A stretch of 64,000 nt of DNA from a virus: positions 18,937 to 82,936 of IMG/VR virus record IMGVR_UViG_3300047321_000170. The stretch is one strand, 5' to 3'. Within the stretch, counting starts at the first letter, position 1; each line of letters opens with the position of its first letter. The notes below the pieces were generated by a model. That model did no database searches and was not told where the DNA came from. It saw only the letters and a program-made list of their open reading frames with translations. Shown piece after piece: positions 1 through 61,934 of the stretch. The position numbers and the translations under genes were made by a program.

Positions 1-1224
1 CGCCCATTCAGTCCTGCCCCACCACCGGGCCGCAAGGATGCACTGATACGCACACTGAAGATCCAGCTCGGGCTCTCGTGCAACTACAGCTGCGAGTACT
101 GCTCGCAGCGCTTCGTGCCTCACGCGGAGCCAACCGGCCCTTACTCTGTCGACCACTTCATGTCTCGCCTCACCTGGTCCGTCACGCTGGCCGACGATGC
201 CGAAGTCGAGTTCTGGGGTGGTGAGCCGCTGGTCTACTGGAAGACGCTTGTTCCATTGGTGGACGCGCTTCGCATGCGCTACCCGGCGCTGACGCTGAAG
301 ATGATCACGAACGGCTCGCTGCTCGACGCGAACAAGGTCAGCTGGCTGGTCACGAACGGCTTCCATATCGGCCTGTCGCACGATGGCCCCGGTCAGAAGG
401 TGCGCGGTCCTGATCCGCTCGACGAGCCACAGACGCGCGACGCCATCCTCTCGCTGTATCGACGGCTCGCACCGCTGGGGCGCATGTCGTTCAACACGAT
501 GCTGCACAAGGACAACCGGTCGCGCGCGGCAGCGCAGGACTTCTTCGTCAAGCTGACGGGTGACGCGAACGTGCCCATCGGTGAGGGCATGCTGATCGAC
601 GCCTACGACGAAGGCGGCAAGGGCATGTCCATGCTGGATCTGGACGCGCACATCGACTACCGCAAGCAGACCTTCGACGAGCTGCGCGCTGGCCGCGCCG
701 TCAACTTCACGAGCGTTACCGGGAAGATCCATGACTTCGCGGACTCGCTTCAGACGAGCCGCCCCGGCTCCTCGGTCGGCCAGAAGTGCGGCTCGGATCG
801 CAGCGACGTGGTCACCGTGACACTGAACGGCGATGTGCTGACGTGCCAGAATGTGTCGGCAGTCTCGACGGCCCCCAACGGCAAGCCTCACCGAGCGGGC
901 TCCATCGAGAGCATCGACAGCGTAAAACTCGAGTCCTCGCGCCACTGGTCAACACGCGTGAACTGTTCGAGCTGCCCGGTCGTGCAGCTCTGCAAAGGCT
1001 CCTGCATGTTTCTGGAGGGCGACCTCTGGGACGTGACGTGTGAGAGCGCCTACAGCGACAACGTGGTGTTCCTGGCCACCGCCCTGTTCGAGCTGACTGG
1101 CTGCACCCTGAAGACTATCAAGCCGATGACGGGGCACTTGCCCGAGCACCGTCGCAACGTCTTCGGCCCACTCACCACCAAGCGGACCACCACCCGCCAA
1201 CCGATCTGGATCAAACAGCAATGA
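1..1224 (+). CDS. Radical SAM/SPASM-domain protein (5' truncated by window edge)
   Basis: Frame 1 is open from base 1 and contains CNYSCEYC (CxxxCxxC, ~79-102), WGGEP, TNG, and a C-terminal SPASM-like CSSCPVVQLCKGSC. Confidence 0.9.
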   Translation, partial: RPFSPAPPPGRKDALIRTLKIQLGLSCNYSCEYCSQRFVPHAEPTGPYSVDHFMSRLTWSVTLADDAEVEFWGGEPLVYWKTLVPLVDALRMRYPALTLKMITNGSLLDANKVSWLVTNGFHIGLSHDGPGQKVRGPDPLDEPQTRDAILSLYRRLAPLGRMSFNTMLHKDNRSRAAAQDFFVKLTGDANVPIGEGMLIDAYDEGGKGMSMLDLDAHIDYRKQTFDELRAGRAVNFTSVTGKIHDFADSLQTSRPGSSVGQKCGSDRSDVVTVTLNGDVLTCQNVSAVSTAPNGKPHRAGSIESIDSVKLESSRHWSTRVNCSSCPVVQLCKGSCMFLEGDLWDVTCESAYSDNVVFLATALFELTGCTLKTIKPMTGHLPEHRRNVFGPLTTKRTTTRQPIWIKQQ

Positions 1225-1604
1225 ACGAAGCTACCCAAGCCCTCGACCCCCAACCGTTGATCGACGCACTGACGCGCCAGCGCAACGAACAATGCGACCG
1301 TGTCGCGCAAGCTGAGGCCGCGCTCTTCTCGACGCAGGCCGCGCTCCAGCAGACGCTGGCCAACCAGGCGAAGACGCAGTCGATGCTTGACGACACGCTG
1401 GTTGCGATGAAGCAACAGCAGGATCTGCACGCGACCAGTCTGGATGAACGAGAGCGCATCGAAGCCGGTCTGCGCGATCAGATCAAGAGCTTGGAGTCGC
1501 AGCTCGACTCCTACACGCGCGTACCCACAACCGTAGCCGTCTCTGTGGAGATGCCGCCTGAGGCTCCGGCACCGCTGGCCTATCCGGGGTCAATGCCTAC
1601 CTGA
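1221..1604 (+). CDS. Coiled-coil hypothetical protein
   Basis: ATGA overlap with upstream gene; Q/A/L-rich heptads. Confidence 0.75.
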   Translation: MNEATQALDPQPLIDALTRQRNEQCDRVAQAEAALFSTQAALQQTLANQAKTQSMLDDTLVAMKQQQDLHATSLDERERIEAGLRDQIKSLESQLDSYTRVPTTVAVSVEMPPEAPAPLAYPGSMPT

Positions 1605-1631
1605 CACCACCGTGGTTCAGCGTAGTTCATA

Positions 1632-1655
1632 AGGGAACCTAACAGGTTCCCTTTT
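1632..1655 (+). terminator. Intrinsic terminator
   Basis: AAGGGAACCT-AAC-AGGTTCCCTT hairpin ending in TTTT. Confidence 0.7.
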
Positions 1656-1678
1656 GCTTTGCTGTGCGAAGAAACTCT

Positions 1679-1707
1679 TTGTGTTGGGTTTACGCGGCCA
1701 ATAAAAT
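1679..1707 (+). promoter_or_regulatory. Putative sigma70-like promoter for lysis genes
   Basis: TTGTGT-N17-TAAAAT. Confidence 0.45.
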
Positions 1708-1710
1708 TTC

Positions 1711-1736
1711 GGCACTCACCACCACCACAGAGTGCC
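1711..1736 (+). promoter_or_regulatory. CCACCAC-loop leader hairpin upstream of endolysin
   Basis: GGCACTC-ACCACCACCACA-GAGTGCC, 4 nt before ATG 1741. Confidence 0.75.
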
Positions 1737-8898: not shown

Positions 8899-8918
8899 CG
8901 CCCGTCCACCACCGGGCG
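8899..8918 (+). promoter_or_regulatory. CCACCAC-loop leader hairpin
   Basis: CGCCCG-TCCACCAC-CGGGCG. Confidence 0.7.
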
Positions 8919-8936: not shown

Positions 8937-9254
8937 ATGCCAGCTGGCCGCTACAACCTTTTGATCGAGCAAGGCGCAACCTTCCGCCTTCCGTTCATCT
9001 ATCGCGACGTGGGCGGTAATCCCGTCCAGTTCGACAACATGCAGGGCGTGATGACGCTGTTCGATCCGAATGGCACAGTAGTCCTGAAGAAAACATCACC
9101 AGATGGTGTGCGCCTCGCAGTCGCAGGCTCGATCGACATCGAGCTGACGGCGGTCGAGACCGCAGCCCTCTCGGTCGGTGGGACGTATCGCTTCGAGCTG
9201 GTCAACGGCACGGATGTCGATCGGGTGCTCAAGGGAACGTGGAGCCTCGAATGA
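8937..9254 (+). CDS. Small Ig-like fibre adaptor protein (BppU N-terminal-like)
   Basis: YNLLIEQGATF..GSIDIELT..T.AL..YRFEL..RVLKG pattern. Confidence 0.6.
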   Translation: MPAGRYNLLIEQGATFRLPFIYRDVGGNPVQFDNMQGVMTLFDPNGTVVLKKTSPDGVRLAVAGSIDIELTAVETAALSVGGTYRFELVNGTDVDRVLKGTWSLE

Positions 9255-10738
9255 GCGATACCAATCTGGTTGTTGAAGTGCATCCGACGCTGCACAACAC
9301 CGTCGAAGTGCGCGCGGCCTCTAAGGCGGTGGACGTGCTCCCGCAGACGGGCAATCAAGTCGATACACATCCGCTCTCGCCGCTCGTCGAAGTGCGCGCG
9401 CCTGGCCTTCAGGGGCCGAAGGGAGATCCGGGTGATGTCGGCCCGACTGGTCCTGCTGGTGCGCAGGGCGAGCAAGGTCCGGAAGGTCCGCAGGGCGTGC
9501 CGGGTCCGAAGGGCGACGTGGGCGATCACGGGCCGCAGGGCATTCAGGGCGAGAAAGGTGACCCCGGCGCGCAGGGTCCACAGGGCCTTCCCGGTGTAAA
9601 GGGTGACACCGGGCCGCAGGGTTTGCAGGGGCCGAAGGGTGATCAGGGCGACCCTGGCCCGCAGGGGCCGCAAGGCCTGAAGGGCGACAAGGGCGATCAG
9701 GGCGACCAGGGGCCGCAGGGGATTCCGGGTGTGAAGGGTGACACCGGAGCGGCCGGCGCGGCTGGCGCGCAAGGGCCGGTCGGCCCTGCCGGTGCCGATG
9801 GTCTGCAAGGCCCAGCTGGTCCGAAAGGCGACAAGGGTGACCCTGGCGCGCAGGGGCCGCAGGGCGAGGTTGGCCCGATGGGACCGGCAGGCAGCGGTGA
9901 GGGAAGCATCGGCCCGGAGGGGCCGCAGGGTGTGGCCGGCCCGCAGGGGCCGAAGGGCGACACAGGCGACGTGGGACCGGCAGGCGCGCAGGGGCCGCAG
10001 GGTGAACAAGGGCCAGCCGGTGCGGACGGAGCGCAGGGGCCGCAGGGCATCCAGGGCGAGCCGGGTCCGAAGGGCGACACAGGCGCGCAGGGGCCGCAGG
10101 GTATCCAAGGCGAGAAAGGCGACACAGGGGCGCAAGGTCCGCAGGGGCTTCAGGGTCTGAAGGGTGACCAAGGTGACCCCGGTGCGCAAGGGCCGCAAGG
10201 GCTAAAGGGCGACACCGGGGCGCAAGGGCCGCAGGGCTTGAAGGGCGACACCGGGGCGGCAGGCGCGCAGGGCATTCAGGGGCCGCAGGGCACGCAAGGT
10301 GTGCAGGGCGTGAAAGGCGACACGGGCGTGCAGGGACCGCAAGGTGTTGCTGGTCCCACCGGCGCCACCGGCCCGCAAGGGCCGAAGGGTGACCCAGGCG
10401 CTACTGGCCCAGGAGCTATTCCGCTCCCCGGCACGATCGCCACCGCGTCCAAGACACTGGCTCTCACCGATGCGCCCTCCCCGGCCTATCAGGGTGGCGT
10501 GCCGATGAACGTGGCGACGGCGAACACCGTGACCGTCCCGCCGAACGCGAGCGTGGCCTTCCCGGTCGGCACCATGATCATGGTCGGCCAGCTAGGCGCG
10601 GGGCAGACCAGCATCGTGGCCGGATCTGGCGTGACGCTGCGCACCAGCTCGTCGCTGACGCTGCGCGCGCAGTACTCGTGTGCCACGCTCTGGAAGGTGG
10701 ACACCGATACGTGGATGGTGATGGGAGATCTGACGTGA
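9251..10738 (+). CDS. Collagen-like fibre protein
   Basis: More than 100 Gly-X-Y triplets; C-terminal [21 protein letters not shown] domain. Confidence 0.88.
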
Positions 10739-11583: not shown

Positions 11584-11787
11584 ATGGAGCAAACGATGAC
11601 ACCCACCACTGTCACCACGCCCACCCCGAAGCTGTACCGAATTCAAGCCGTCATGCAGCAGCTCAGCGTCTCGCGCGCGACCGTCTATCGTCTCGTGAAC
11701 AACGGCAAGCTGAAGCTGGTCAAGATCGGCGAACGCTCCAGCGGCATCACCGCGGAGAGCGTTGACGCTCTGGTAGCCGGCGCCTAA
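11584..11787 (+). CDS. xis: AlpA-family excisionase
   Basis: LYRIQAVMQQLSVSRATVYRLV HTH; near att site and integrase. Confidence 0.85.
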   Translation: MEQTMTPTTVTTPTPKLYRIQAVMQQLSVSRATVYRLVNNGKLKLVKIGERSSGITAESVDALVAGA

Positions 11788-12116: not shown

Positions 12117-12132
12117 CTGTACGGATATACAG
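12117..12132. promoter_or_regulatory. LexA (SOS) box
   Basis: TA-CTGT-ACGGATAT-ACAG-TA. Confidence 0.85.
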
Positions 12133-12176: not shown

Positions 12177-12480
12177 AGCTACCCACCCTTCTGCCCTACC
12201 ACCCCAAAAGTGGGTAGCTAGTCGGGTAGCTAGAGCCTAATTTTACTGGTCTGTTCACCGCAAACCCTTATGCAGCAAGGCTGCGAGAAATTCATGAAGA
12301 TTGCCACCTGCAATCTCCATTGATGTGTTTTAACGTACCGGAGTGTTTCAGGCAATCCCCGGAAAGCCCTGCCCAGCAAGGGTTCGTGTTCCGTAGTGTT
12401 TCATAATGTTTCGCGATACCACGCGAAATATGGGTAGCTAGGTGGGTAGCTAGAGCACGTATAATCGCGCCTAGCTACCC
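12177..12480. repeat. Integrase arm-type repeats of attP
   Basis: GGGTAGCTAG at 12212, 12224, 12432 and 12444; inverted at 12471 and partly at 12177. Confidence 0.8.
12294..12320. other. attP core
   Basis: ATGAAGATTG-CCACCTG-CAATCTCCAT: 9/10 inverted repeat around a 7-bp overlap, between the arm repeats. Confidence 0.75.
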
Positions 12481-12496
12481 ACCACAGAGACCTACG

Positions 12497-17925: not shown

Positions 17926-17949
17926 CAGGGCCGGTGGTGGACGGCCCTG
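17926..17949 (-). promoter_or_regulatory. CCACCAC-loop leader hairpin upstream of thyX
   Basis: Minus strand CAGGGCCG-TCCACCAC-CGGCCCTG. Confidence 0.75.
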
Positions 17950-18537: not shown

Positions 18538-18565
18538 GATGTGGTGGTAGTGGTGGTGGTGAAAT

Positions 18566-22720: not shown

Positions 22721-23132
22721 GGTTCGAGATTCGGTGGTGGTCGATCTCGGCCCACTTCATCGACTTTGTGGTGTTATCGATGATGTGCGACGCGTGGACT
22801 GCATACCAGATTCCATACGACTCTCGCCGGATGAAGAAGTAATAGTCCCCGCCTGCTGCTACTGCCTTGCGTGCTGCGCGCCACTGGTTCTTGGCGATCA
22901 TGCTGAAGGGGAAAGACGGCTCCTTCACCGTGCTCTTCACTTCAGCGTAGAACATGCGGCCTTCCCATGTGACTGTGAAGTCAGAAGGCTGTGCGTCCTT
23001 GATTGCTCGTTGAAGCCCAGTGGCACCGCGCACATGCGCCGTGTCGGTAAGTCGCTCGACTGCTGCGCGCTTACCGAAAGGCGCAAAGAAGGAGATGAAC
23101 TCCTCCTCTGCATCCTTCCAGACTTGCTTCAT
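22668..23132 (-). CDS. Holliday junction resolvase (RecU-like PD-(D/E)XK)
   Basis: PSDF..AEVKS..Q. Confidence 0.75.
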   Translation of the reverse strand: MKQVWKDAEEEFISFFAPFGKRAAVERLTDTAHVRGATGLQRAIKDAQPSDFTVTWEGRMFYAEVKSTVKEPSFPFSMIAKNQWRAARKAVAAGGDYYFFIRRESYGIWYAVHASHIIDNTTKSMKWAEIDHHRISNHVLFSQLLATQHDRKMP

Positions 23133-23199
23133 TTTTTCTTTGACTACGTGGTGGTGGTGTGCATCGATTATATCTAGCTAGTACCTCTAAGGTTCAAGG

Positions 23200-27655: not shown

Positions 27656-27680
27656 TGTTTTGATCCGTGGTGGTGGTGAT

Positions 27681-29269: not shown

Positions 29270-29445
29270 GTAAAAGCTCCAGTTTCATTAGCCAGGTTTC
29301 TGTGTCTTACTGCCCTCGCTGCTAAGGTGGTGGATCTCAGCGGCGAGTTCGAAGATCTTAACTTCGACCTTCTAACTATTCAATCGCATGTATATGCTAC
29401 TTGCGACTGATAGATCCGCTTACGTGCTACTGCGCACATTCATTT

Positions 29446-33284: not shown

Positions 33285-33356
33285 GTTTCGATCCAGTAGA
33301 TGAAAGTTATTACAGTAGGACGCTCGGTGGTGGACGTGCGTCTTACCGTATGCTGT

Positions 33357-33847: not shown

Positions 33848-34104
33848 GACGGAACCCTCGTGCGCCGCAGGCGGTCACGCAGACCCTTGAGCTTGTTCTT
33901 CTGCTCTTTGGTCAGCATGTTCGTGTTGAGCAGGTTCTTGACTGCCTTGTTCCACTTCTCGCGGTTGACGGTCTTGGGCTCCGGATCACCCTCTTCGGTG
34001 ATCGCGATCAGCTCCTTGTAGGTGAGCAGCTTCTCGCCGGTCGTCATCATCGCGGTGAACGCGGCGGAAGCCGCGTTAGGCGTGGTGGTCGATTTCGATT
34101 CCAT
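33844..34104 (-). CDS. Basic hypothetical protein
   Basis: Coupled ORF. Confidence 0.6.
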   Translation of the reverse strand: MESKSTTTPNAASAAFTAMMTTGEKLLTYKELIAITEEGDPEPKTVNREKWNKAVKNLLNTNMLTKEQKNKLKGLRDRLRRTRVPS

Positions 34105-34402
34105 TGTGGGTGCTCATGAAGATGCCCACGATCGACGGATCGTCGATTGCTTGTCCGAACCAGTGGCCAGGGTCCAGACGGGCATTGATGATTGTTTTCA
34201 TCTCCTCCCACATCTTCAAGCCTTCATCGTTCCAGAACATGTGGTGGTTGTCCCGGATCGCCTGCTTGAGTCCATGCGGAAGGTACTTTTCTTTCAGCTC
34301 GACGAACGCGTCGATGTCAACTTTTAGCAACACTCCAAGGCCGACATCGACCACGTCACGCATCGCGCCGCTCTCGGCCTGATACACGACGAGTGCGGTC
34401 AT
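34076..34402 (-). CDS. Hypothetical protein
   Basis: Coupled ORF. Confidence 0.6.
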   Translation of the reverse strand: MTALVVYQAESGAMRDVVDVGLGVLLKVDIDAFVELKEKYLPHGLKQAIRDNHHMFWNDEGLKMWEEMKTIINARLDPGHWFGQAIDDPSIVGIFMSTHNGIEIDHHA

Positions 34403-35128: not shown

Positions 35129-35223
35129 AGGCCACCTTTGCGGGGCGCAGAAGAAAGGGGTTTCATGTTGACTCCATTGTCAGAATGCTCAAGCGCGGTG
35201 GTGGTCGCGCATCCTACAGATAC

Positions 35224-35266: not shown

Positions 35267-35689
35267 TTAGTGCGCCGACTTAGCCAGCGTCGGGATCAGC
35301 TTGAAGTGCTTCGACAGATACGTCAGCACCTGGTCGCCGTGTTCCGCGAGGTTCGACAGCAGCGCTTCTTCGGTGATCGCGGCCGGCAGCGTGCGACCTT
35401 CAGCGACCGTGGTGCCGTCGACAACGACCGGCTCGATCACTTCGGTCTTCGCGCCCTTGAACAACAGGCCGATGGCCTGCTTCAGCGTCGCGGTGCGCTC
35501 GGCGACGAACGCTTCACGGGCCTTCTGTTGAGCCTGGAAGGCGGCTTCTTGTGCCGGGGTCCAGTTGGTCGCGGCCTTCGGTGCGCCGCGCAGTGCGCGA
35601 GGCGTCTTACCGTCATTGCCACCCTTGCTCTTGGCCGGGGCTGCGTTCGTCTTCGTCGTCTTTGCGTTCGTGGTGGTGTTCGTGTCCAT
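35267..35689 (-). CDS. Hypothetical protein with basic N-terminus
   Basis: 140-aa ORF followed by terminator. Confidence 0.7.
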   Translation of the reverse strand: MDTNTTTNAKTTKTNAAPAKSKGGNDGKTPRALRGAPKAATNWTPAQEAAFQAQQKAREAFVAERTATLKQAIGLLFKGAKTEVIEPVVVDGTTVAEGRTLPAAITEEALLSNLAEHGDQVLTYLSKHFKLIPTLAKSAH

Positions 35690-36027: not shown

Positions 36028-36249
36028 TTGGTTACAAATCCTTTATAGGTCGTCGATATTACCTTACTAGGTCGCTCTGTGGTGGAAGATTTGACCTTTC
36101 TTTTTGTGCTTAAGACATCCTCTCACACGTTGACCGCCTGCTCAGGATATGTCTTGCGTGAAGGCGTATAACCGCCGACCCGTCTGTACGCTGCACGGCG
36201 TACATCGAAGGTTCGAATTGTAAGATGAAACCTTCAATCTTGGGGCTGC

Positions 36250-37782: not shown

Positions 37783-37931
37783 GATGTGGTGGTGATGTTA
37801 GGTACAGACGGGCAGACAGAGCGCGGGGCCAGCCGCTTCTCTGTGAGCTATGGAATTGGGGGCTGCGGGTATGAAAACAGCGCGCCTCAGCGCGCTGTTC
37901 TTGCTGCTATTCGGTGCTGCGATTCTCCGGC

Positions 37932-38150: not shown

Positions 38151-38181
38151 GATTGATCCTTCAATGTGGTGGTGGTGGTGA

Positions 38182-40726: not shown

Positions 40727-40777
40727 GATTACTCTGTGGTGGTGAGTGAGTGATGATGGAATGTTCAAAGTTAACAT

Positions 40778-46414: not shown

Positions 46415-46723
46415 TCAGTGGCTGGTGTAGATGACCGAACCTTCGAACTGCGCATCGACCGTGACCTTCCCGTTGTAGTCACGGCGAACGTTCCAGATGG
46501 TGGCGCCGGTTTCGATCTCGAATTCGCGCAGCATGGCTTCCATCTTCAGGCCGAGCAGTTGAGCTGCGGTCTTGATCTCACGAGCGTGGTACGGAGCAGG
46601 CGCTTCGTTCTTGACTATCGTGAGCGCCGGTTGGGTGTTGGGTGTATCTGCGCTGTAGGCTTCGACGAGAGCGTCGGCAGCGGATTGTTGTGCGGGGCCA
46701 GCGTTGACGGTGGTGGTCGTCAT
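46415..46723 (-). CDS. Hypothetical protein
   Basis: GAGGA SD. Confidence 0.65.
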   Translation of the reverse strand: MTTTTVNAGPAQQSAADALVEAYSADTPNTQPALTIVKNEAPAPYHAREIKTAAQLLGLKMEAMLREFEIETGATIWNVRRDYNGKVTVDAQFEGSVIYTSH

Positions 46724-46755: not shown

Positions 46756-46781
46756 GTTGTGGTGGTGAAGGTGAAACGTGT

Positions 46782-48473: not shown

Positions 48474-48487
48474 GTTGGACTGGTCTC

Positions 48488-49118: not shown

Positions 49119-49251
49119 TAGTCTTGATCCTGAGATTGGAGTTGGTACAGGAACGGCAGCGAGTCAAGCGACGAATCGAGTTCGCGCAAGTGCTCACCGA
49201 CCAGTTCGGCCAGTGTTTCAAAGCTCATGGGTTAGTTCGTGGTGGTGTTAA

Positions 49252-49265
49252 GTGCAGTGCTGCAC
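49252..49265. promoter_or_regulatory. Palindrome, family B
   Basis: GTGCAG-TG-CTGCAC. Confidence 0.55.
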
Positions 49266-49831: not shown

Positions 49832-49961
49832 TGCATGTTTCCGTGGTGGTGGAAGTTTTGATCCTCCAGGAGCCTCTTGGCGGGGCTCCCGGCACTGCGG
49901 GTGCTACCTTGGTACTACTGACGGCCGGCCAGGGCCACCAACGGGCTGTATTCCAGCCCAA

Positions 49962-50438: not shown

Positions 50439-50449
50439 TTGTGGTGGTG

Positions 50450-51023: not shown

Positions 51024-51439
51024 GGCGCGATGTGATCTCGCACGCGAGCGCCCCACGCTTCGGCCAATTGCCCCAGCGCATCCTTCACGCCGCTGCTCCT
51101 CCAACGCTCGGCGCGCTCCCGCTCCTGCTCCTGCTGCTCGGCTACACGAGCCCGCTTACGGGTCAGCTTGCGCTCCACATGCGAGCTATAGACGCGTGTC
51201 TCAGGAGCCGGAGCGGTAGCGGGCGCCCAGGGCTCATAGCGCGCCCACTGCGGTAGCTCGTCCAGTTCCATATCACCGTTCTCGACGCAGGCCCAGAGCA
51301 TCGCGATGGTGGCCAGGCGTTCCGCGCGCTCGCCGTGTTGCTGATCAAAGTCGAGCTGCACCGCATACGCCCGTTGCGCATCAACCCCTGCCGTGATGGC
51401 CTTCGTATAGTTGCTGATGGTTGGATCGAGATAACGCAT
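51011..51439 (-). CDS. Hypothetical early protein
   Basis: AGGAG SD; family-B palindrome at 51458. Confidence 0.6.
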   Translation of the reverse strand: MRYLDPTISNYTKAITAGVDAQRAYAVQLDFDQQHGERAERLATIAMLWACVENGDMELDELPQWARYEPWAPATAPAPETRVYSSHVERKLTRKRARVAEQQEQERERAERWRSSGVKDALGQLAEAWGARVRDHIAPIIR

Positions 51440-51666
51440 GGTCAATCTCCTGAAAAGGTGCAGAACTGCACTTTGTCCGGTATCAAGTCGGCGCGGCCTA
51501 TAGGAGACCTGAATTACGCCACGTCAACCGCTGCGCTCGAACGCTACAGCGGCACAATCAGGCGTTCTCGCTTGACGGTGCGGACGACTCACAATCCGCA
51601 CGAGCAAACGCGCCCCTTATACATACAGCACAGCACGACCGGCCTCTCAGCCAGTCGCGTTTGCCG

Positions 51667-52368
51667 TTACGCTGCGGTCAGTGCGGGGAACGCCGCCAGT
51701 TCCGCCAGTTCCGCCAGCATGGCGCGGGCGTACTCTTTGCGCTGTGCTTCGGACATGTTCGCCAACACTTGACGCGTCAGTGTCACGAAGTCGCCCACTG
51801 TATCGATGCTTGCGCGCACCGATTCAACCGGCGCCCCCGTTTCGTCAAGCGCTTTCTGGGGCGCGGGCGATTCAACCGGGCCAGCATCTTTAGGCGTCTT
51901 TTCTTTCGGCTTTTTCTCGCTAGTCGGTTTGCTGAAACCGAATTCAGCGAAGAGTGCGTCCGTGCTGTGGCATTGCAGGCTAAAGAGCCATGCCTTAACG
52001 ATCGCGGCCGCGTCTTTATCGTCCGCTGCGTTCAACACTTCCACGACTTGCAACCCCTTGGTTGCCGCTTGCTTGCAAATGCCTACGGCTTTTTCGACAT
52101 AACGCTTAGCGGTGCCCATGCATGCATCCGCCAGTGTTGCGCGCGCCACTTCGTCCAGTGCGTCCCATGCTTTTGCGCCCTGACGTTGCGCCGCCAGTTC
52201 AAACGCGACGGGGCGCGTATTGTTCGTGGCAAAACCGCGTTCTGCGAACGAACCTTGACGCAGATAGACCGCGACCAATGCAGAGTAAGCGCCGCCTACA
52301 ACCGACTTTTCCGCCGTGACAATTGCTTTAACGGCAAACTTGATTTGTTCGATAGTCGGAACGTTCAT
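51667..52368 (-). CDS. Ala/Lys-rich first early-gene candidate
   Basis: GGAG SD; downstream of two family-B palindromes. Confidence 0.7.
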   Translation of the reverse strand: MNVPTIEQIKFAVKAIVTAEKSVVGGAYSALVAVYLRQGSFAERGFATNNTRPVAFELAAQRQGAKAWDALDEVARATLADACMGTAKRYVEKAVGICKQAATKGLQVVEVLNAADDKDAAAIVKAWLFSLQCHSTDALFAEFGFSKPTSEKKPKEKTPKDAGPVESPAPQKALDETGAPVESVRASIDTVGDFVTLTRQVLANMSEAQRKEYARAMLAELAELAAFPALTAA

Positions 52369-52420
52369 TGTAGAAACTCCAGTGATAAGCGCTTATGTGT
52401 GCGCTGATTAGCCAGTATGT

Positions 52421-52479
52421 AAAGTGCAGTTCTGCACTTTTCTTTTTCCCCTTGCTAAAAGTGCAGACGCTGCACTTTT
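52421..52479. promoter_or_regulatory. Two extended family-B palindromes
   Basis: AAAGTGCAGTTCTGCACTTT and AAAAGTGCAGACGCTGCACTTTT. Confidence 0.7.
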
Positions 52480-52509: not shown

Positions 52510-52531
52510 GGGCGTGGTGGTGGACACGCCC
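52510..52531 (-). promoter_or_regulatory. CCACCAC-loop hairpin near the 5' end of the early leftward transcript
   Basis: Minus strand GGGCGTG-TCCACCAC-CACGCCC. Confidence 0.7.
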
Positions 52532-52697: not shown

Positions 52698-53261
52698 ATG
52701 TCCCAAGATAAATTCACCCGAGACCAATTCACCGTCGAGCTTGCGAGAGAGTGGTTTGCCTACGATGCTGAAGCCGGCGTAGTAATCAGGATCAAGAATC
52801 CTAAGAAGGGTCCGCAGACGGCCGGCACGCGAGCCGGAGCGCCTCATAAAGCGAGTGGCATGCGCCAGGTCATCTTTCGTGGCGTGAGCGTCTATGAGCA
52901 GCAGCTCGTCTGGGCGCTATGCAAGGGAGCGTGGCCGACATCCAAGCTCAGGTTCAAAGACGGCGACCCTCTCAACTGTCGAATTGAGAACTTGTGTGGG
53001 GCAACGAATACAGCAGATGATTACAAGGCGTTACAGTCCAAGACTGTCAGGGAATCCTTACCCCTCTCTGGCGTAATTCCTACCTCAAGTGGGAAGTTCA
53101 AGGCTCAAATTTTCCGAGAGCGGATGATCTATCTAGGCACGTTCGATACTCCTGAGAGTGCAAGTGCGGCATACCTGACAGCCAAGTCAGTCCTTCATGA
53201 TCCGCTTAATAGAGGGAAATCGACAGTTGAGCTACTTGAGGGACTACCAAAACTGGGTTAA
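52698..53261 (+). CDS. HNH-AP2 protein with degenerate HNH active site
   Basis: G.WP..(LRF)KDGD.LNCRIENL; AP2-like GV..GKFKAQI..YLGTFDT.E.AS.AY. Confidence 0.8.
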   Translation: MSQDKFTRDQFTVELAREWFAYDAEAGVVIRIKNPKKGPQTAGTRAGAPHKASGMRQVIFRGVSVYEQQLVWALCKGAWPTSKLRFKDGDPLNCRIENLCGATNTADDYKALQSKTVRESLPLSGVIPTSSGKFKAQIFRERMIYLGTFDTPESASAAYLTAKSVLHDPLNRGKSTVELLEGLPKLG

Positions 53262-53318: not shown

Positions 53319-53347
53319 TTGCAAACGCACCTCAAGATGTTTATAGT
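53319..53347 (+). promoter_or_regulatory. sigma70 promoter for predicted sRNA
   Basis: TTGCAA-N17-TATAGT. Confidence 0.75.
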
Positions 53348-53351: not shown

Positions 53352-53520
53352 TCTCAAGTGCTGCGTGATCTGTGGTGGTGAGCGCAGCAGCAGAGATGTC
53401 ATGTCTCTGTCACGACTGAGGGGTGGCCAGCTCCAAAGTCAACCGTCCTAGACGGTAGTTTTGATCCATTGTAGAAGCTCAAAAGCCCCACCGACTAGCT
53501 ATCGGCGGGGCTTTTCCTTT
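53352..53520 (+). ncRNA. Predicted structured antisense sRNA with GUGGUGGUG loop
   Basis: Promoter and terminator with no convincing ORF between them; hairpins at 53360-53388, 53391-53409 and 53442-53456; complementary to repeated leader motifs. Confidence 0.7.
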
Positions 53521-53550: not shown

Positions 53551-53578
53551 AGACTACTGTGTTTACATACAGCGTCAA
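53551..53578 (-). promoter_or_regulatory. Leftward sigma70 promoter with LexA box as spacer
   Basis: Minus strand TTGACG-CTGTATGTAAACACAG-TAGTCT. Confidence 0.75.
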
Positions 53579-56129: not shown

Positions 56130-56683
56130 ACGGTCTCTTCTGTGGTGGGGTCAGTCGCGCCATCGTCAGCTGCTGCTGAACGGGCCAGGACGCTCCTGAG
56201 TCGATCCATAACGTCCGTACGCTGGTCAGGCGACAGGACTTCTTCCATGATCGTGAGCACGGTGTCCTGGAAGTCTTTGATCTGCTTGACTCCCAGCGCG
56301 CGCTCGCGAGCATTCACAAGACGTTCGAGCAAACTGGTCGCGGTGCGGAAATAGGCCATCCGCTCCGTTTGATCCGACTGCCCGATGGTCTTGCCGTAGG
56401 CTTTCAGCTCCGTGAAGACTGAGTGCAAGTCTCCAGCGAGCGTGCTGTCAATTTCATCCTCCGATACGGGGGCTGAGACAGGCGGTTTCTCGGTTGACTC
56501 TTCTTTTTCCTCCCTTGATCCGTTGCCGAACGCGATAGCACGGTCAATGATGTTCTTGAACTGTGCGTCATAGGGACAATCAGGACTACGGAGGTACAGG
56601 ACATCCTCACTGGCCAGAGTGAGAATCGTCTTGACAGCCCACGTAGCGTGGTCCGTCAGATCGGGATAGTGGTAGTCGCTCAT
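56126..56683 (-). CDS. Hypothetical protein, possible terminase small subunit
   Basis: Helical 185-aa protein adjacent but divergent to terminase large subunit. Confidence 0.5.
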   Translation of the reverse strand: MSDYHYPDLTDHATWAVKTILTLASEDVLYLRSPDCPYDAQFKNIIDRAIAFGNGSREEKEESTEKPPVSAPVSEDEIDSTLAGDLHSVFTELKAYGKTIGQSDQTERMAYFRTATSLLERLVNARERALGVKQIKDFQDTVLTIMEEVLSPDQRTDVMDRLRSVLARSAAADDGATDPTTEETV

Positions 56684-56848: not shown

Positions 56849-58633
56849 GTGTCCTCAGTGAATAACCAGTACCTCCAGACTCTCCTCGATCGCGCGGCGA
56901 ATCGCTGGTCCAATGACCGGGCGACGATGACCTATGGCGACTGGATGTGTGAGAACACGACCCTGCGCGACCGGAAGTTCAGCTTCGCGCGCTATCCGTT
57001 CCAGAAGGCGATCGCCGACGACATGAGCCCGTCGCTCGATTGCATCAAGCCCTCACAGGTCGGCCTCACCGAGCTTCAGATCCGCAAGACGCTGGCCTTC
57101 ATCGCGCGTCAGCGCGGCGTGAACGTGATCTACACGCTGCCCGACGAGAAGATGATGGAGCGGATCGCCAAGGGCCGTATCCGCCCCCTGGTGGACGAGG
57201 AAAAGGTCTTCAACCTGGAGTCGATCGGCGGTGGCAAGCCAACCCGCACGAACGAAATCATCCAAGTCGGCAAGAGCTTCATGTACGTCACCGCAGCCGG
57301 CGAAGGCGCGGCGACCTCGATCTCGGCCGACATGGTCGTGAACGACGAAGTGGACTTGACCGATCAGTCGATCCTCGCCCTCTTCCAGTCCCGGCTCCAA
57401 GGCTCGGACTACCGTATCGCGCACCGCTTCTCGACGCCGACGCACACCGACTTCGGCATCGACCAGACATTCAAGATCACCGACCAGATGGAGTACATGC
57501 TCAAGTGCTCCCACTGCAACCACCGGCAGATCCCGGACTTCGACAAGAAGTTCGTGCATCTCCCCGGCCTCGGTGACAAGGAATTCGAGGAGATCGACCA
57601 GTCGATGATCGACTCGGGCACGATCGACCTCAGCACCGCCTCAATCCGCTGCGAGCACTGCGGCGGGCTGCTCAACCTGGGCGACCACGCGAACCGTGAG
57701 TGGGTCGCCAAGTATCCGCAGCGCAAGGACCGGCGCGGCTACCGCGTACGCCCGTTCTCGACCGAACGGCTCGATGTCCGCTACATCATCAACCAGCTGT
57801 TCGAATACAAGCGACTGAACTTCATCCGCGGCTGGTACAACACCGTGCTCGGGCGCTCGTACACGGGCGGCGACCAGCGCTTGACCGACGCGGACATCGA
57901 GCGCGCCTTCACCGGCGACATGTTCAAGCGCCCACCGATCCCCGGCCTGCCCGCGTGGATCGGCATCGACATGGGCGCAACCTGCCACATCGTCGTCGGT
58001 CAGGGCTATGACGTGAACTCGATCCAGGTCCGCGAGTTCATCACCGTGCCGGCTGCGCGCCTGGTCGAAGAGCTGCAACGGATCTGCGCCGAATACCGCG
58101 TGGTCGCAGGCTCCTGCGACCGCCACCCGTACACGCCGACCGCCGAAGCCGCGCGCGACGTGACCTATGGCCGCGTTCTGCCTAACGAGTATCGCGGCCA
58201 GAAGGAAATCAACCTGATCAAAGACGCAGCGGGCGAAGTCCTGTACATGCAGTCCAACCGGACCATGTTGCTGGACGAAGTCTCGCGCGTCGTGCGCCTT
58301 GGGCGCATCAAGTTCTCGGGATACGGCACGCAGAAGTCCGTGATCTTCGAGCACCTGAAAGACATGGTTCGCAATGAGGAACCTGAGAAAGAAGCCGAGT
58401 GGAAGAAGCTGAACGGCAACGACCACTACTTCCACGCCCTTGGCTTCATGTTGAGTGCCGTAAAGCTGCATACGACAAACGCCTCGGCTCTGTTCAACAC
58501 CGAAGTACGAAGCGTCATCGCCATCGCGGGCGCCGACATGGGCATGAACAAGACCCCGAGCCTGGTCCAGAACACCACCACCACGAAGAAACAGATCTAT
58601 GGCCAAGCCCCAAGCAACATCATCCTCTTCTAA
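56849..58633 (+). CDS. Terminase large subunit (GpA-like)
   Basis: KPSQVGLTE, DEVD, FSTPT, CSHC/CEHC, GIDMG, NDHYFHA. Confidence 0.92.
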   Translation: MSSVNNQYLQTLLDRAANRWSNDRATMTYGDWMCENTTLRDRKFSFARYPFQKAIADDMSPSLDCIKPSQVGLTELQIRKTLAFIARQRGVNVIYTLPDEKMMERIAKGRIRPLVDEEKVFNLESIGGGKPTRTNEIIQVGKSFMYVTAAGEGAATSISADMVVNDEVDLTDQSILALFQSRLQGSDYRIAHRFSTPTHTDFGIDQTFKITDQMEYMLKCSHCNHRQIPDFDKKFVHLPGLGDKEFEEIDQSMIDSGTIDLSTASIRCEHCGGLLNLGDHANREWVAKYPQRKDRRGYRVRPFSTERLDVRYIINQLFEYKRLNFIRGWYNTVLGRSYTGGDQRLTDADIERAFTGDMFKRPPIPGLPAWIGIDMGATCHIVVGQGYDVNSIQVREFITVPAARLVEELQRICAEYRVVAGSCDRHPYTPTAEAARDVTYGRVLPNEYRGQKEINLIKDAAGEVLYMQSNRTMLLDEVSRVVRLGRIKFSGYGTQKSVIFEHLKDMVRNEEPEKEAEWKKLNGNDHYFHALGFMLSAVKLHTTNASALFNTEVRSVIAIAGADMGMNKTPSLVQNTTTTKKQIYGQAPSNIILF

Positions 58634-60185: not shown

Positions 60186-60262
60186 AAACTCTTTGACTCT
60201 TGTTTAGCCCATCGAAATAATACGGGCTACTTTCACCAGGTGGTCCTAAACGCACCAACGTC

Positions 60263-61387
60263 ATGCCGAAGAGCGTTCCAATCACACCGCGGATTCAAAA
60301 CCTGATCGCCCAGAACAACGGCGGTGAGGTCGTTGACTACAGCCAGATCGTAGTCTTCGAGGCGTCGGTGCTGAACACTCGCCCGCTGTCGAAACCCGGC
60401 TCTATCTTTGATAAGGGCCGCGTCACGGACGACACGCTCAAGCAGATGTCAACGTACCTGAACAGCGGTGGTTTCGTGCCGCTTCAGACGTTGCATCCTA
60501 ACGGGGACGAGCTGCCGCTCGGCCGCTTCTTCTACGGTGAAGTGCTGCCCTCCACGCTCGGCGACGGCTCGACGGAACTGGTCTGCCTCTTCTACCTGCC
60601 GCGCACCGACGAGAACGTCACGAAGCTGGATAACGGCATCATCGACGAAGTCAGCGTTGGCTTCGTAGGCCAACAGCTTCTCTGCTCGGAGTGCGGCTGG
60701 GACTATCGCGGTCCCGATGCCACGCTGCTGAACTTCTTCGACCGCGTCTGCGCTAACGACCACACGCTCGGCACCGATGGCACCTATCTGAAGATCAACG
60801 GCCTCGACCGCTGGACCGAAACCTCCCTCGTGTCGAAGGGTGCCGCGCACAACGCAAAGATCATGGGCCGTGCTAAACAGCGGCTCGGCCAGGAGCAGTA
60901 CGAGCGCCTGGCGGCTTCGGGTATCGCTCCCGAGCAAATTTTGTTGACTGCTACCACAACCGATACCCGGAGTAAGAAAAAGATGGATAAGGAAATGATC
61001 GAGATGGTCAACCAGCTCGCAGAGCTGAAGGCCGACGCAAAGCATCACAACATCGCACTGACGGCCAAGGACGGCGAGATCGCCACCCTGAAGGCGTCGG
61101 TCGAAGCCAAGGACGCTGAAATCGCGAAGCTGAAGGAAGGTACGGAGCTGAAAGACGCGACGACCAAGCTGACCGAAGCAGAGGGCAAGGTCACCGAGCT
61201 GACCGCCTCGAAAGAATCCGCAGACGCGAAGATCGCTGAACTCGAAGCGAAACTCAGCACGGCGGAAACACAAGTCGCTGCGTTGCAAGCGGGCGCCGGT
61301 AACGGTGGTCGCGGCAACGGTGCAGGCGGCGAATCCGTGACGTTGTCGGCCTCGAACGCTGCGTTCAAGGCTGCACCGCGTCGTTAA
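60263..61387 (+). CDS. Prohead protease-scaffold
   Basis: H..ELP.G, EVSVG, CSECG..C..H, ETSLV..GA; C-terminal coiled coil. Confidence 0.8.
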   Translation: MPKSVPITPRIQNLIAQNNGGEVVDYSQIVVFEASVLNTRPLSKPGSIFDKGRVTDDTLKQMSTYLNSGGFVPLQTLHPNGDELPLGRFFYGEVLPSTLGDGSTELVCLFYLPRTDENVTKLDNGIIDEVSVGFVGQQLLCSECGWDYRGPDATLLNFFDRVCANDHTLGTDGTYLKINGLDRWTETSLVSKGAAHNAKIMGRAKQRLGQEQYERLAASGIAPEQILLTATTTDTRSKKKMDKEMIEMVNQLAELKADAKHHNIALTAKDGEIATLKASVEAKDAEIAKLKEGTELKDATTKLTEAEGKVTELTASKESADAKIAELEAKLSTAETQVAALQAGAGNGGRGNGAGGESVTLSASNAAFKAAPRR

Positions 61388-61411
61388 TCACTCGCAACCC
61401 GAGAGGAAAGC

Positions 61412-61822
61412 ATGAGCAATGTAATCGGCAACGGAGTTTCGCTTCGTGGCATGTACCACGACGAATTCCAGTACCCGTTCCTGCTCGCTGCCGGGATCAC
61501 CAAAGCCGATGAAGGCAAAGCTGTTACTCCGGATGCGAGTGCGGCGAACACGGTGAAGCTGGCTGGCGACGGCGATCAGATCATCGGTCGCCTGGAAGTG
61601 GTCGAAATCCGCATCCAGGAAGGCATCAACATCGGTACGGTCTCGATCCAGGGTGGTCTCGACTACCCGTTGAAGGCTGCTGAAGCTGCACTCGTCAACG
61701 GCGACCGCGTCGTCGGCGGCGGCAGCGGCACGATCCGCAAAGCAGCCGCGGGCGTGTACTCGGCCTTCATGGCGACGGGCGAAACCAGCCCGAGCGGCAA
61801 CCCGGTAGTGATCAAAGCCTAA
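61412..61822 (+). CDS. Head decoration protein
   Basis: Small Gly/Ala-rich protein between scaffold and capsid. Confidence 0.7.
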   Translation: MSNVIGNGVSLRGMYHDEFQYPFLLAAGITKADEGKAVTPDASAANTVKLAGDGDQIIGRLEVVEIRIQEGINIGTVSIQGGLDYPLKAAEAALVNGDRVVGGGSGTIRKAAAGVYSAFMATGETSPSGNPVVIKA

Positions 61823-61833
61823 CTCTGCTGCTC

Positions 61834-61934
61834 GCCCACCACCGGGCCGCAGGAACTGGCTGAAGTACCCCGCGCGCGACACCGTCCACCACCGGCCGCG
61901 CGCGGCAGACGAACAAAACTCTTTGGATCAAAAC
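61834..61934 (+). promoter_or_regulatory. Capsid leader with two CCACCAC hairpins and TGGATCAAAAC
   Basis: GCCC-ACCACC-GGGC; CCG-TCCACCAC-CGG within CCGCGCGCG/CGCGCGCGG; TGGATCAAAAC at 61924-61934. Confidence 0.7.

Follow-up and report, generated by a model that had tools for sequence, protein, structure and literature searches.

A strand-oriented CCACCAC element at phage start regions, a probable target of a candidate phage-encoded small RNA

Which function is served by the heptamer CCACCAC, repeated beside genes throughout the 64,000-nt stretch of phage DNA analysed here (the window)? The exact heptamer matches 52 times in the window, against a mean of 7.36 in 100 dinucleotide shuffles (sd 2.71, maximum 12), which bears out the enrichment claimed in an earlier sequence-only reading. 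According to our tally against the gene layout, 49 of the 52 matches are carried by the strand of the local gene, the exceptions being those at 8559, 32345 and 55541; the strand thus flips with gene direction, as had been claimed. Among the 27 positions listed in that reading, 26 fall 0-3 nt from an exact CCACCAC, and at its 1171 site the exact heptamer is replaced by the same repeat minus one letter (CACCACCA). Over the whole phage genome (82.9 kb) there are 54 sense and 7 antisense CCACCAC, and ACCACCAC, with 37 sense and no antisense occurrences, is the top strand-skewed 8-mer.

The matches are located preferentially at the beginning of genes, the starts being taken throughout from our crude gene caller. 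Non-coding DNA, which by the same caller makes up 9.9% of the phage genome, is touched by 31 of the 54 sense matches and by none of the seven antisense clusters, and 26 of 41 sense clusters have a candidate start within -40 to +30. The codon-preserving control suggested by the sequence-only reading was run with 300 synonymous shuffles: mid-gene matches did not differ significantly from expectation (12 against 9.7), while the first 36 nt of genes held 8 against 4.1 expected, a value reached in a fraction of 0.027 of the shuffles, and the last 50 nt held 3 against 1.2. As mid-gene sequence stands at background and start regions stand above it, the excess belongs to leaders and start regions, not to coding sequence. 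Start-proximal sites just inside coding sequences, at 11603, 34082, 35670, 46710 and 47905, were absent from the earlier list; the deep-gene matches at 19, 6796, 18416, 41699, 44920 and 49601 are probably background.

The phage is of the Burkholderia temperate type. In the 8.6-Mb genome of B. paludis, which carries a related prophage of about 79 kb, 10 of the 31 matches to ACCACCACCAC and 9 of the 42 matches to ACCACCAC-N0-12-ATG lie within that prophage; outside it, the motif in the chromosome is at about control level, with no excess. The CCACCAC element is phage-specific.

It also behaves as an RNA element. All nine hairpins named in the sequence-only reading have a loop of 8-12 nt containing the motif when folded to the minimum free energy (MFE) structure, although two of them, at 52514 and 61886, miss a strict criterion (loop of at most 13 nt, stem of at least 4 bp). 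Under this criterion, in a test that omits two clusters longer than 13 nt, 14 of 39 sites form closed hairpins where flank shuffles predict 1.77, a count of 14 being reached in none of 20,000 simulations. The predicted unpaired probability of the sites averages 0.84. At the proximal site in the capsid leaders of nine relatives the loop NCCACCAC is constant on stems of varying sequence; compensatory changes affect 6 of the 10 consensus pairs, and it is the sense strand that carries the G-U pairs. About one third of the sites are hairpin-displayed, in true kissing geometry, and most are linear, at the position of a Shine-Dalgarno (SD) sequence.

A putative partner is encoded in the window itself, at 53354-53512 on the plus strand, where a candidate small RNA (sRNA) exposes an exact complement of the motif in the loop of its first hairpin. 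The covariance model matches the window and loci in 13 relatives, with an identical loop in all 13 model matches. The alignment has 96.3% paired cells and compensatory changes in 14 of its 25 pairs, a level that none of 500 shuffles attained, and RNAalifold gives -29.0 kcal/mol on the plus strand and -17.5 on the minus, on which the plus-strand G-U pairs become A-C. Both promoter hexamer regions are kept in the 12-sequence alignment, in which the stem of the terminator covaries and is bordered on either side by T-runs; this terminator is possibly the true 3′ end of the sRNA. No Rfam family matches the sRNA or the window. Discovery of the sRNA was not independent of the motif, because the locus was noticed partly through the motif on its minus strand.

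Complementarity between the loop UGAUCUGUGGUGGUGAG and the sites spans 7-14 contiguous nt, with at least 9 nt at 23 of 40 sites and a maximum of 14; nine hairpin sites have just 7. Beyond the repeat, the flanks of the sites track the sRNA loop, with TCA 5′ of the motif and AGA 3′ of it, and the non-repeat AGA extension is found at five sites (CCACCACAGA in each). Exact 8-mer complements of this loop occur in 21 of 115 TIRs, in 0 of 115 antisense TIRs and in at most 5 of 115 mid-gene windows. By RNAduplex energy with the loop, TIRs could not be told from controls: the count at -16 kcal/mol was 38 for TIRs, 18 for antisense and 25 for mid-gene, and shuffled seeds gave a mean of 22.3 and a maximum of 42.

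Motif and sRNA also occur together. Sense and antisense CCACCAC number 54/7, 55/10, 46/19, 38/10 and 46/10 in five sRNA-positive genomes, and 3/14 (G006) and 13/19 (JWF) in two genomes without the sRNA; among the genomes examined the excess is confined to the carriers, which form one clade, so that the co-occurrence is effectively a single evolutionary event. The motif is kept at 15/20, 15/18 and 20/21 orthologous genes in G002, G004 and G005, and appears at only 5/45, 4/48 and 3/52 orthologues of genes that lack it; G003, with the sRNA and 46 sense matches, keeps it at just 3 of 13 orthologous TIRs, and the sRNA-less relatives at 0/9 and 1/13. The suggestion that the sites are kissing-loop targets of the sRNA is thereby strengthened, by the exact complement and by the co-occurrence, with the kissing geometry itself limited to about one third of the sites.

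Start regions that carry the motif are poor in SD sequences. Of 18 motif TIRs 3 have an SD 4-mer, compared with 56 of the 97 other genes (Fisher p = 0.0017), and duplexes with the anti-SD average -2.0 kcal/mol in the former and -5.3 in the latter (p = 3.5e-5); in four relatives the corresponding fractions are 2/11, 1/6, 1/10 and 1/14 for motif TIRs and 32/82, 44/112, 44/98 and 38/82 for other genes. Hence CCACCAC usually stands in for the SD sequence at the starts that bear it. Such a shortage of SD sequences argues for the element helping initiation, something that repression alone does not account for. The 16S rRNA of a relative of the B. paludis host ends in a canonical 3′ tail and lacks GTGGTG, so direct pairing with rRNA is unsupported.

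We therefore favour, as the probable explanation, that the CCACCAC sites are C/A-rich initiation elements targeted, and probably silenced in the manner of GcvB, by the phage sRNA; the enhancer half of the model is drawn by analogy. We infer that the sRNA is transcribed and pairs with the sites. In the model, the extended element (T)CACCACCAC(AGA) would act in cis on the phage's own mRNAs, at the leaders or start codons of some 25-30 genes, out of about 115, in both the early and the structural arm. Being G-free, it would stay single-stranded, and local stems would display it in 8-nt loops at about one third of the sites. The partner would be an sRNA of about 115-160 nt, with its own sigma-70-like promoter and convergent with the primase operon, whose 17-nt apical loop would form 7-nt loop-loop kissing contacts at hairpin sites and pair over 9-14 nt at linear ones. 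The element would support SD-independent initiation, and the paired sRNA would cover it together with the landing zone of the 30S subunit; through this occlusion one constitutive phage RNA could keep the translation of many phage genes low, those for integrase, primase, portal and capsid among them. It might do so in the lysogen, for example, or serve as a timer. Repression is somewhat preferred to activation as the effect of the sRNA. If the model is true, a single phage RNA controls the translation of many genes of its own phage.

Table 1. CCACCAC sites and elements of the candidate sRNA locus in the window
Feature	Position	Strand	Details
Hairpin-loop site	1187..1193	+	27 nt 5′ of ATG 1221; then GGATCAAAC; within 3′ end of upstream gene
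Hairpin-loop site	1719..1728	+	7-bp stem, 12-nt loop; 12 nt complementary to sRNA loop; following gene 179 aa (start GTG 1732 or ATG 1741), positional counterpart of JWF endolysin gene
Hairpin-loop site	8906..8912	+	6-bp stem, 8-nt loop; 24 nt 5′ of ATG 8937
Hairpin-loop site, excisionase-like ORF 11584-11787	11603..11609	+	codons 7-9
Integrase site CCACCACAGA	12479..12485	+	11 nt 5′ of ATG 12497; TATAATCG box ahead
Hairpin-loop site	17934..17940	-	8-bp stem, 8-nt loop; 16 nt 5′ of ATG 17917
Two adjacent runs, MazG-like gene	18541..18559	-	3 nt 5′ of ATG 18537
Hairpin-loop site, exonuclease-like gene	22734..22740	-	13 nt 5′ of ATG 22720
Linear site	23148..23157	-	15 nt 5′ of ATG 23132; ~10 nt past TATAAT box
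Site TCACCACCACCAC, directly followed by GGATCAAAACAATG	27667..27676	-	5′ of short ORF ahead of DNA polymerase gene
Hairpin-loop site	29327..29333	-	long stem, 9-nt loop; 57 nt 5′ of ATG 29269
Hairpin-loop site	33327..33333	-	42 nt 5′ of ATG 33284, which GGATCGAAAC precedes
Coding-start site	34082..34088	-	codons 6-8, ORF 33844-34104
Hairpin-loop site	34241..34247	-	9-bp stem; adjoins ATG; gene assignment uncertain
Hairpin-loop site	35198..35204	-	5-bp stem, 8-nt loop; 31 nt 5′ of ATG ~35166
Coding-start site	35670..35676	-	codons 5-8, ORF 35267-35689
Site CCACCACAGA	36079..36085	-	51 nt 5′ of ATG 36027
Linear site, ArdA-like antirestriction gene	37786..37792	-	3 nt 5′ of ATG 37782
CCACCACCACCAC run	38166..38178	-	15 nt 5′ of ATG 38150
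Best linear site	40736..40742	-	14 contiguous nt CTCACCACCACAGA complementary to sRNA loop; 9 nt 5′ of ATG 40726
Hairpin-loop site	46710..46716	-	codons 3-5, ORF 46415-46723
Linear site TCACCACCACA	46759..46765	-	35 nt 5′ of ATG 46723
Site in 8-nt loop	47905..47914	-	codons 2-5, ORF 47649-47918
Linear site	49239..49245	-	10 nt 5′ of ATG 49228
Linear site	49843..49852	-	11 nt 5′ of ATG 49831; GGATCAAAAC ahead
Linear site TCACCACCACA	50441..50447	-	2 nt 5′ of ATG 50438
Hairpin-loop site	52514..52523	-	7-bp stem, 8-nt loop; regulatory intergenic region adjoining early leftward operon
Predicted sigma-70-like promoter of sRNA	53319..53347	+	TTGCAA, 17 nt, TATAGT; consensus scan
Candidate trans-acting sRNA core	53354..53466	+	four covarying hairpins; 5′ end inferred from promoter, 3′ end uncertain
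sRNA hairpin 1 loop UGAUCUGUGGUGGUGAG	~53366-53382	+	17 nt, invariant across 12 aligned sequences
sRNA tail GUUUUGAUC	~53458-53466	+	invariant
Putative bidirectional intrinsic terminator	53480..53512	.	common to sRNA (+) and primase operon (-); from sequence reading
Primase linear site CCACCACAGA	56142..56148	-	12 nt 5′ of ATG 56129; translationally coupled junction; kept in G002, G004 and G005 orthologues
Portal linear site	58575..58584	+	14 nt 5′ of ATG 58599; within 3′ end of terminase gene; without SD
Capsid-leader distal hairpin-loop site	61836..61842	+	major capsid; 8-nt loop
Capsid-leader proximal hairpin-loop site	61886..61892	+	~30-42 nt 5′ of start; then GGATCAAAACATG

An unlikely alternative is a protein-binding site, either boxB-like, as also raised by the sequence-only reading, or RegA-like, in which a phage or host protein would bind single-stranded or loop CCACCAC for activation, repression or antitermination, the complementary sRNA being a secondary modulator or a coincidence. 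A constant loop on variable stems marks protein-recognised hairpins too, most phage proteins have no known family (5 of 10 without a Pfam match, 5 of 10 without a PHROG match), and the specificity of the motif for the phage implies a phage factor. However, no candidate protein was found in three families and 30 of about 115 proteins examined, and the six-frame genome contains no NusG-, ProQ/FinO- or Hfq-like domain. This explanation accounts neither for the flanks that track the sRNA loop nor for a conserved RNA showing the exact complement, and boxB/nut sites occur once per early operon before terminators, unlike the approximately 30 sites found here, many of them at coupled junctions; it is thus less supported than the sRNA.

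The element could also act by itself as an SD-independent enhancer or standby site, its G-free, C/A-rich run keeping the start open in a GC-rich genome or binding ribosomal protein S1, with no trans-acting phage factor. The depletion of SD at motif TIRs in five genomes, the high predicted unpaired probability, the presence of the motif just downstream of start codons and the precedent of ACA motifs as known enhancers (PMC3879156) agree with such a role. It is nevertheless improbable: a function of structure alone needs no exact 7-9-mer and does not predict closed 8-nt loops 30-80 nt 5′ of the start, the host does not use the motif, and sRNA-less relatives translate the orthologues without it. 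Finally, a polar DNA signal (a Chi-like or packaging motif, an ops-like non-template hairpin, or a promoter or initial-transcribed element), which would suit the strand switch with gene direction and end-measured polarity if the genome end lies near the terminase gene, as well as two sites 10-14 nt past TATAAT boxes, is very improbable, as the motif is about 60-fold concentrated in non-coding leaders with mid-gene density at background, lies within translationally coupled junctions where a promoter is not expected, has stem G-U pairs on the sense strand, shows no excess in the host chromosome, unlike a Chi motif, and belongs to a phage without a NusG/RfaH-like domain.

The model of an initiation element silenced by an sRNA has precedents. 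GcvB and its C/A-rich targets were reportedly described by Sharma et al. in 2007. According to PMC3879156, a G/U-rich segment of GcvB pairs with C/A-rich elements in or upstream of the RBS of many mRNAs, and translation-enhancing ACA motifs are silenced at the yifK and dppA target sites; the likeness would extend to an element that promotes initiation and an sRNA that silences it. The phage system differs in that: (i) the phage encodes the regulator as well as every recognised target, all known from sequence alone; (ii) CCACCAC replaces the SD sequence, whereas the GcvB element accompanies it; (iii) one third of the sites are in hairpin loops, and (iv) a closed 17-nt loop holds the seed, which in GcvB is a linear stretch.

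Small structured phage RNAs that act in trans on their own phage's transcripts through short loop complements are represented by c4 of P1/P7, whose loops pair around a ribosome-binding site and block it (PMC12197685), and by the CI RNA of P4, which causes premature termination (PMC4825925). On these accounts a single mRNA is the target of c4, CI has two complementary sites, and each of the two RNAs arises by processing of the very transcript that it regulates. Here, by contrast, about 30 sites are dispersed over the two arms of the genome, and the sRNA would be made from a predicted promoter of its own. The phage sRNA is set apart from c4 and CI by their descriptions, without an Rfam match. 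The SAS/ESAS of Cluster K mycobacteriophages is, according to PMC3203893, an asymmetric repeat placed in one orientation a few nt from many starts and nearly absent from the host genome, which its authors consider a possible binding site for an RNA or protein of either host or phage. It resembles CCACCAC in being phage-specific, in one orientation and at many start codons. However, it includes AGGAG, the core of the SD, is found only in the non-structural half of the genome and has inverted repeats that do not support an RNA hairpin, whereas CCACCAC lacks an SD, occupies both arms, and has covarying hairpins and an identifiable complementary RNA. In Xanthomonas sX13, according to PMC3771888, C-rich loop motifs pair with G-rich motifs near starts; as here, an apical-loop motif is complementary to a start-enriched motif, which in the sX13 system can itself be an enhancer, and repression by sX13 needs both. 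The polarity is reversed, the C-rich motif being in the sX13 sRNA, and the Hfq-independent sX13 regulon is chromosomal, whereas the regulon proposed here would be phage-borne.

The source virus record carries terminal repeats and is estimated to be complete at 82,936 bp, of which the window takes up bases 18937-82936. Achromobacter phage JWF is the nearest named phage, with 72% nucleotide identity over the primase gene; closer to it than JWF are a Burkholderia paludis MSh1 prophage and IMG/VR records of 78-83 kb, of which several are classified as proviruses. The provirus-classed relatives and the MSh1 prophage point to a temperate siphovirus of Burkholderia-type hosts. Gene starts and the non-coding fraction (9.9% of the genome) were taken from our own rough gene caller. 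The main features are collected in the table. At least five copies of the palindrome GTGCAG-N2-3-CTGCAC are placed in or beside intergenic leaders of the early leftward region, and the set looks like an operator or 'stoperator' series for a DNA-binding protein. The 105-aa gene, located immediately downstream of a LexA-type box, may be an SOS-controlled gene of the antirepressor type.

Location of the features discussed in the text (window positions, except for the last line)
Feature	Position	Strand	Remarks
Terminase, portal, capsid	56.8-64 kb	+	
Tail genes and integrase	1-13.8 kb	+	
Long leftward block	14-56.7 kb	-	DNA polymerase A, ligase, SMC-like protein, helicase, primase
Conserved non-coding stretch	between primase operon and HNH endonuclease gene	+	holds candidate sRNA
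Candidate sRNA	53354-53466/53512	+	
Invariant sRNA tail	53458-53466		
HNH endonuclease ORF	52698-53261	+	Pfam HNH_3, E = 2e-8; strand opposite to neighbours
TTGACG/TAGTCT promoter	53551-53578	-	
LexA-type box CTGT-N8-ACAG	53557-53572		in spacer of TTGACG/TAGTCT promoter
LexA-type box CTGTACGGATATACAG	12117-12132		second box; near-consensus, within TACTGT...ACAGTA
105-aa gene	11784-12101	-	no known family; between excisionase-like and integrase genes
GTGCAG-N2-3-CTGCAC	36406-52475		10 copies of 14-15 bp, e.g. 46741, 49252, 50936, 51458, 52424, 52461
TAGCTAG adjoining TATAATCG boxes	12435-12477, 23165-23181		upstream of integrase and 23132 gene
Further TAGCTAG	12215-12233, 13879		integrase region
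TAGCTAG	53495		loop of sRNA/primase terminator, conserved in relatives
GGATC(A/G)AAAC	1208, 27654, 33282, 46726, 49852, 61925		2-8 nt before several ATGs, capsid included
GGGCCGCAGGG repeats	9530-10280		
499-aa tail protein gene	9239-10738		contains collagen-like repeat
(ACC)n run of ~47 nt	G003:C1:69464-69510	gene strand	uninterrupted; relative, locus L069

The window contains 52 copies of CCACCAC, whereas 100 shuffles gave a mean of 7.36 (sd 2.71) and never more than 12. Of the 27 positions at which the sequence-only reading had placed it, 26 lie within 0-3 nt of an exact match, the exception being position 1171, which reads CACCACCA. The strand follows gene direction, as had been claimed: over the whole genome 54 matches are sense and 7 antisense, and ACCACCAC, the most strand-skewed 8-mer, is found 37 times in sense and never in antisense. 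Non-coding DNA is touched by 31 of the 54 sense matches and by no antisense cluster, and 26 of the 41 sense clusters fall in the -40..+30 interval around a candidate start codon. The motif also withstands the codon-preserving background that the same reading had set as a test of refutation. In 300 synonymous-codon shuffles the mid-gene count was at expectation (12 versus 9.7) and only the first 36 nt of genes were somewhat enriched (8 versus 4.1 expected); hence, leaders and start regions are the source of the signal. For a self-overlapping repeat of this kind, Markov k-mer statistics of maximal order gave no information.

The full element reads (T)CACCACCAC, often followed by AGA, and its 3' end is located from 0 to ~90 nt from the start codon. 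It follows promoter-like TATAAT boxes at 12479 and 23148, lies within translationally coupled junctions (primase, portal and 1187) and in some genes occupies the first codons, where it is read Thr-Thr-Thr. TAGCTAG, found at several places in the genome, is possibly a promoter or binding motif specific to the phage. The GGGCCGCAGGG repeats (GGGCCGCA is found 21 times in sense and once in antisense genome-wide) were rejected as a regulatory motif, being Gly-Pro-Gln codons of the collagen-like repeat in the tail protein gene.

All nine hairpins named in the sequence-only reading are recovered, as predicted structures, in the form described there. Considering all tested mRNA sites, 14 of 39 hold the motif in a closed loop of at most 13 nt on a stem of at least 4 bp, a strict criterion for which flank shuffles give 1.77 sites and none of 20,000 simulations reaches 14; the remaining 25 are not in closed loops of that size. 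The mean predicted unpaired probability of the sites is 0.84. Sites are thus accessible, and they are concentrated where pairing could affect initiation. The major capsid gene is preceded by two tandem hairpins, whose stem sequences differ among nine relatives while the loop, NCCACCAC, is constant and G-U pairs occur on the sense strand. Variable stems, a fixed loop and sense-strand G-U pairs are the mark of an RNA element with a loop that something recognises.

A partner for that loop would be encoded in the same genome. The conserved stretch next to the primase operon holds, in order on the + strand, a TTGCAA-17-TATAGT promoter, four hairpins, the invariant GUUUUGAUC and a bidirectional terminator. 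The first hairpin exposes an invariant 17-nt loop, UGAUCUGUGGUGGUGAG, that contains the exact complement of the leader element with its flanks and is closed by an 8-bp covarying stem. Among 12 distinct sequences, pairing holds in 96.3% of cells and compensatory changes are seen at 14 of 25 pairs, figures favoured by the fitting of the alignment to the covariance model; no shuffle reaches the observed pairing values, and slid controls collapse. An independent RNAalifold run favours the + strand, with -29.0 kcal/mol as opposed to -17.5 for the - strand, in which G-U pairs turn into A-C. Promoter, G-U pairs and energies together suggest transcription from the + strand. Hence, the genome that carries the sites also carries a complementary RNA gene with predicted promoter, predicted terminator and conserved structure. 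Rfam gave no family at the gathering threshold, nor any near match with E relaxed to 10.

The covariance model detects a single copy in the window, matches 13 loci of relatives and gives no match in JWF or in G006, a more distant record. The related prophage of B. paludis MSh1 carries the sRNA at G001:C1:222459-222580. All 13 model matches share one and the same loop sequence, so that only presence or absence co-varies with the motif. A search for variant-loop homologues, carried out with a loop-free pattern over the viral collection, gave 36 stretches; 25 of these did not belong to relatives already known, and none of the 25 was matched by the model. The promoter with the LexA-type box in its spacer would be directed antisense across the sRNA gene; among 10 aligned relatives it occurs in none but the window, L016 and L015, and it was rejected as a conserved part of the system. 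The HNH ORF lies in a stretch of lower GC (0.547), with the early regulatory region on one side and the sRNA gene on the other.

Sites are complementary to the sRNA loop over 7-14 contiguous nt, with at least 9 nt at 23 of 40, and at five the match includes the non-repeat extension AGA; at hairpin sites complementarity is 7 nt, just the loop. According to the predicted folds, the complementary bases would be displayed in hairpin loops on both partners at the 14 closed-loop sites, the geometry of a loop-loop contact. Over the length of the sRNA, exact 8-mer complements peak at loop 1 (21 of 115 translation initiation regions, TIRs, versus none in antisense and at most 5 mid-gene). A second, smaller peak falls at the invariant tail (9 of 115 versus at most 1 in controls), which is complementary to the GGATCAAAAC preceding several ATGs. 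In RNAduplex comparisons only the tail differed from its controls, with 34 of 115 TIRs at -16 kcal/mol versus 9 antisense and 16 mid-gene (shuffled seeds: mean 5.1, maximum 18). For loops 1 and 3 it did not separate TIRs from antisense, mid-gene or shuffled-seed controls, and this test of the loops was dropped because the GC-rich background is too strong. The GGATC(A/G)AAAC sequences near ATGs are the complement of the invariant sRNA tail, GUUUUGAUC. Loop 3 (GGUGGCCAGC) was rejected as a third seed: its complement, CTGGCCACC, occurs 11 times in sense and once in antisense, yet 7 of the 11 are in-frame Leu-Ala-Thr codons deep in genes, so the bias was taken to be mainly codon usage, and the remaining four include the sRNA locus.

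Motif and sRNA are also found together across genomes. The five sRNA-positive genomes, which form one clade, have 38-55 sense matches, whereas the sRNA-negative G006 and JWF have 3 sense and 14 antisense, and 13 sense and 19 antisense, respectively. Among the sRNA-positive relatives, orthologous genes retain the motif in 15 of 20 cases in G002, 15 of 18 in G004 and 20 of 21 in G005, and it stands at orthologues of motif-less genes in only 5 of 45, 4 of 48 and 3 of 52; G003 has it at only 3 of 13 orthologous sites despite 46 sense matches. Orthologues of motif genes carry it in none of 9 cases in G006 and in 1 of 13 in JWF, where start regions often show ordinary GGAG- or AGGA-type sites. The element could instead be read by a protein. 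This is unlikely, since no candidate protein emerged from the three domain families sought (no NusG domain in the six-frame genome, and no ProQ/FinO or Hfq domain detected in the phage) and the matches of the motif flanks to the sRNA loop would be left unexplained.

Many genes of the phage have ordinary AGGAG-type sites. A Shine-Dalgarno (SD) 4-mer precedes only 3 of the 18 genes with the motif in -40..-1, versus 56 of 97 others (p = 0.0017), and predicted generic anti-SD pairing is weaker at motif genes (-2.0 versus -5.3 kcal/mol). Motif TIRs are SD-poor in four relatives too (2 of 11, 1 of 6, 1 of 10 and 1 of 14). As 16S is absent from the B. paludis draft assembly, that of a relative of this host was used. 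It has a canonical 3' tail ending in GGATCACCTCCTTT, to which the motif has no complementarity, and five internal GGTGG; GTGGTG is nowhere in it, and direct pairing of the motif with rRNA was rejected. Therefore, the motif is not an alternative SD. GGATCA lies just 5' of the anti-SD in this 16S. In the 8.6-Mb B. paludis genome the prophage holds 10 of 31 ACCACCACCAC and 9 of 42 ACCACCAC-N0-12-ATG matches; outside it both are about at control level, with no host excess. A C/A-rich leader might enhance initiation autonomously, with no partner RNA. We regard this as improbable, because it accounts neither for the exact sequence nor for the distant hairpins, nor for the absence of the motif from sRNA-less relatives.

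Taking into account the precedents of GcvB (PMC3879156) and sX13 (PMC3771888), we propose by analogy an enhancer-and-silencing mechanism. In the model, the G-free element would support SD-independent initiation and serve as landing site of the sRNA loop. Hairpin sites would form a kissing complex with the sRNA and linear sites an extended duplex, and the paired sRNA would block the 30S landing zone. A lock in the lysogen would be in keeping with the constitutive-looking promoter of the sRNA and with the site on the integrase leader. The sRNA could be neutralized by convergent transcripts that run on from the primase operon, or by the SOS-box promoter of the window, L016 and L015.

An activating role may still be considered, as even the capsid gene is without an SD. 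The sRNA would then be a trans-acting initiation adaptor, a private SD for the phage: genes with CCACCAC in place of an SD would be translated only when paired with the loop, another invariant part docking on the 30S. One example would be the UGAUCC tail, whose complement, GGAUCA, stands directly before the anti-SD of the 16S used here. Such an adaptor, which we think rather improbable, would create a translation channel closed to host mRNAs and would account for a missing SD even at the major capsid gene.

Signals acting on DNA are very unlikely, being contradicted by the concentration in leaders and by the sites at coupled junctions, with no NusG-like protein encoded. A genome with lambda-type nut/boxB antitermination has one or two such sites, placed where early operons begin and accompanied by boxA and an N-like protein; here there are ~30 sites, coupled gene junctions included. 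Chi-like polar motifs make no distinction between coding and non-coding DNA and are in excess in the host chromosome, unlike CCACCAC, which has most of its sense matches in the small non-coding fraction, is at background mid-gene and shows no host excess. Non-template-strand hairpins of the ops/RfaH type recruit a NusG paralogue, a domain missing from the six-frame phage genome.

Returning to silencing by the sRNA, the parts are known: sRNAs with the seed in a loop, and C/A-rich enhancers as targets. GcvB silences translation-enhancing ACA motifs at its target sites (PMC3879156). Targets of this type are C/A-rich elements that stimulate translation and are silenced by a G/U-rich segment of the sRNA, and CCACCAC fits them in composition, position and complementarity. 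The c4 RNA of P1 and P7 and the CI RNA of P4 act on transcripts of their own phage (PMC12197685 and PMC4825925). Known phage sRNAs have one or a few targets each, by our reading of a 2025 review (PMC12197685). Here one phage RNA appears to be matched to a motif ahead of about a quarter of the phage genes, early and late. The arrangement, a phage-borne regulon of ~30 self-targets on both arms with SD replacement and loop display, was not found in the literature searched, as judged from titles and abstract openings, none of which dealt with the motif. If true, it would constitute a genome-wide RNA layer of phage gene control, as a lysogeny lock, a timer or a private initiation signal, in a system compact enough (one loop and one 7-mer) to be tested directly by compensatory mutations. 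A further comparison is the Start-Associated Sequence of Cluster K mycobacteriophages, in which an SD core lies within the repeat, 3-7 bp from the start. CCACCAC does not belong to that family, since 15 of 18 motif TIRs lack an SD and the spacing to the start is from 0 to ~90 nt. What reads the Cluster K sequences was left open (PMC3203893), and the motif and sRNA described here would offer a concrete, testable answer to that kind of question.
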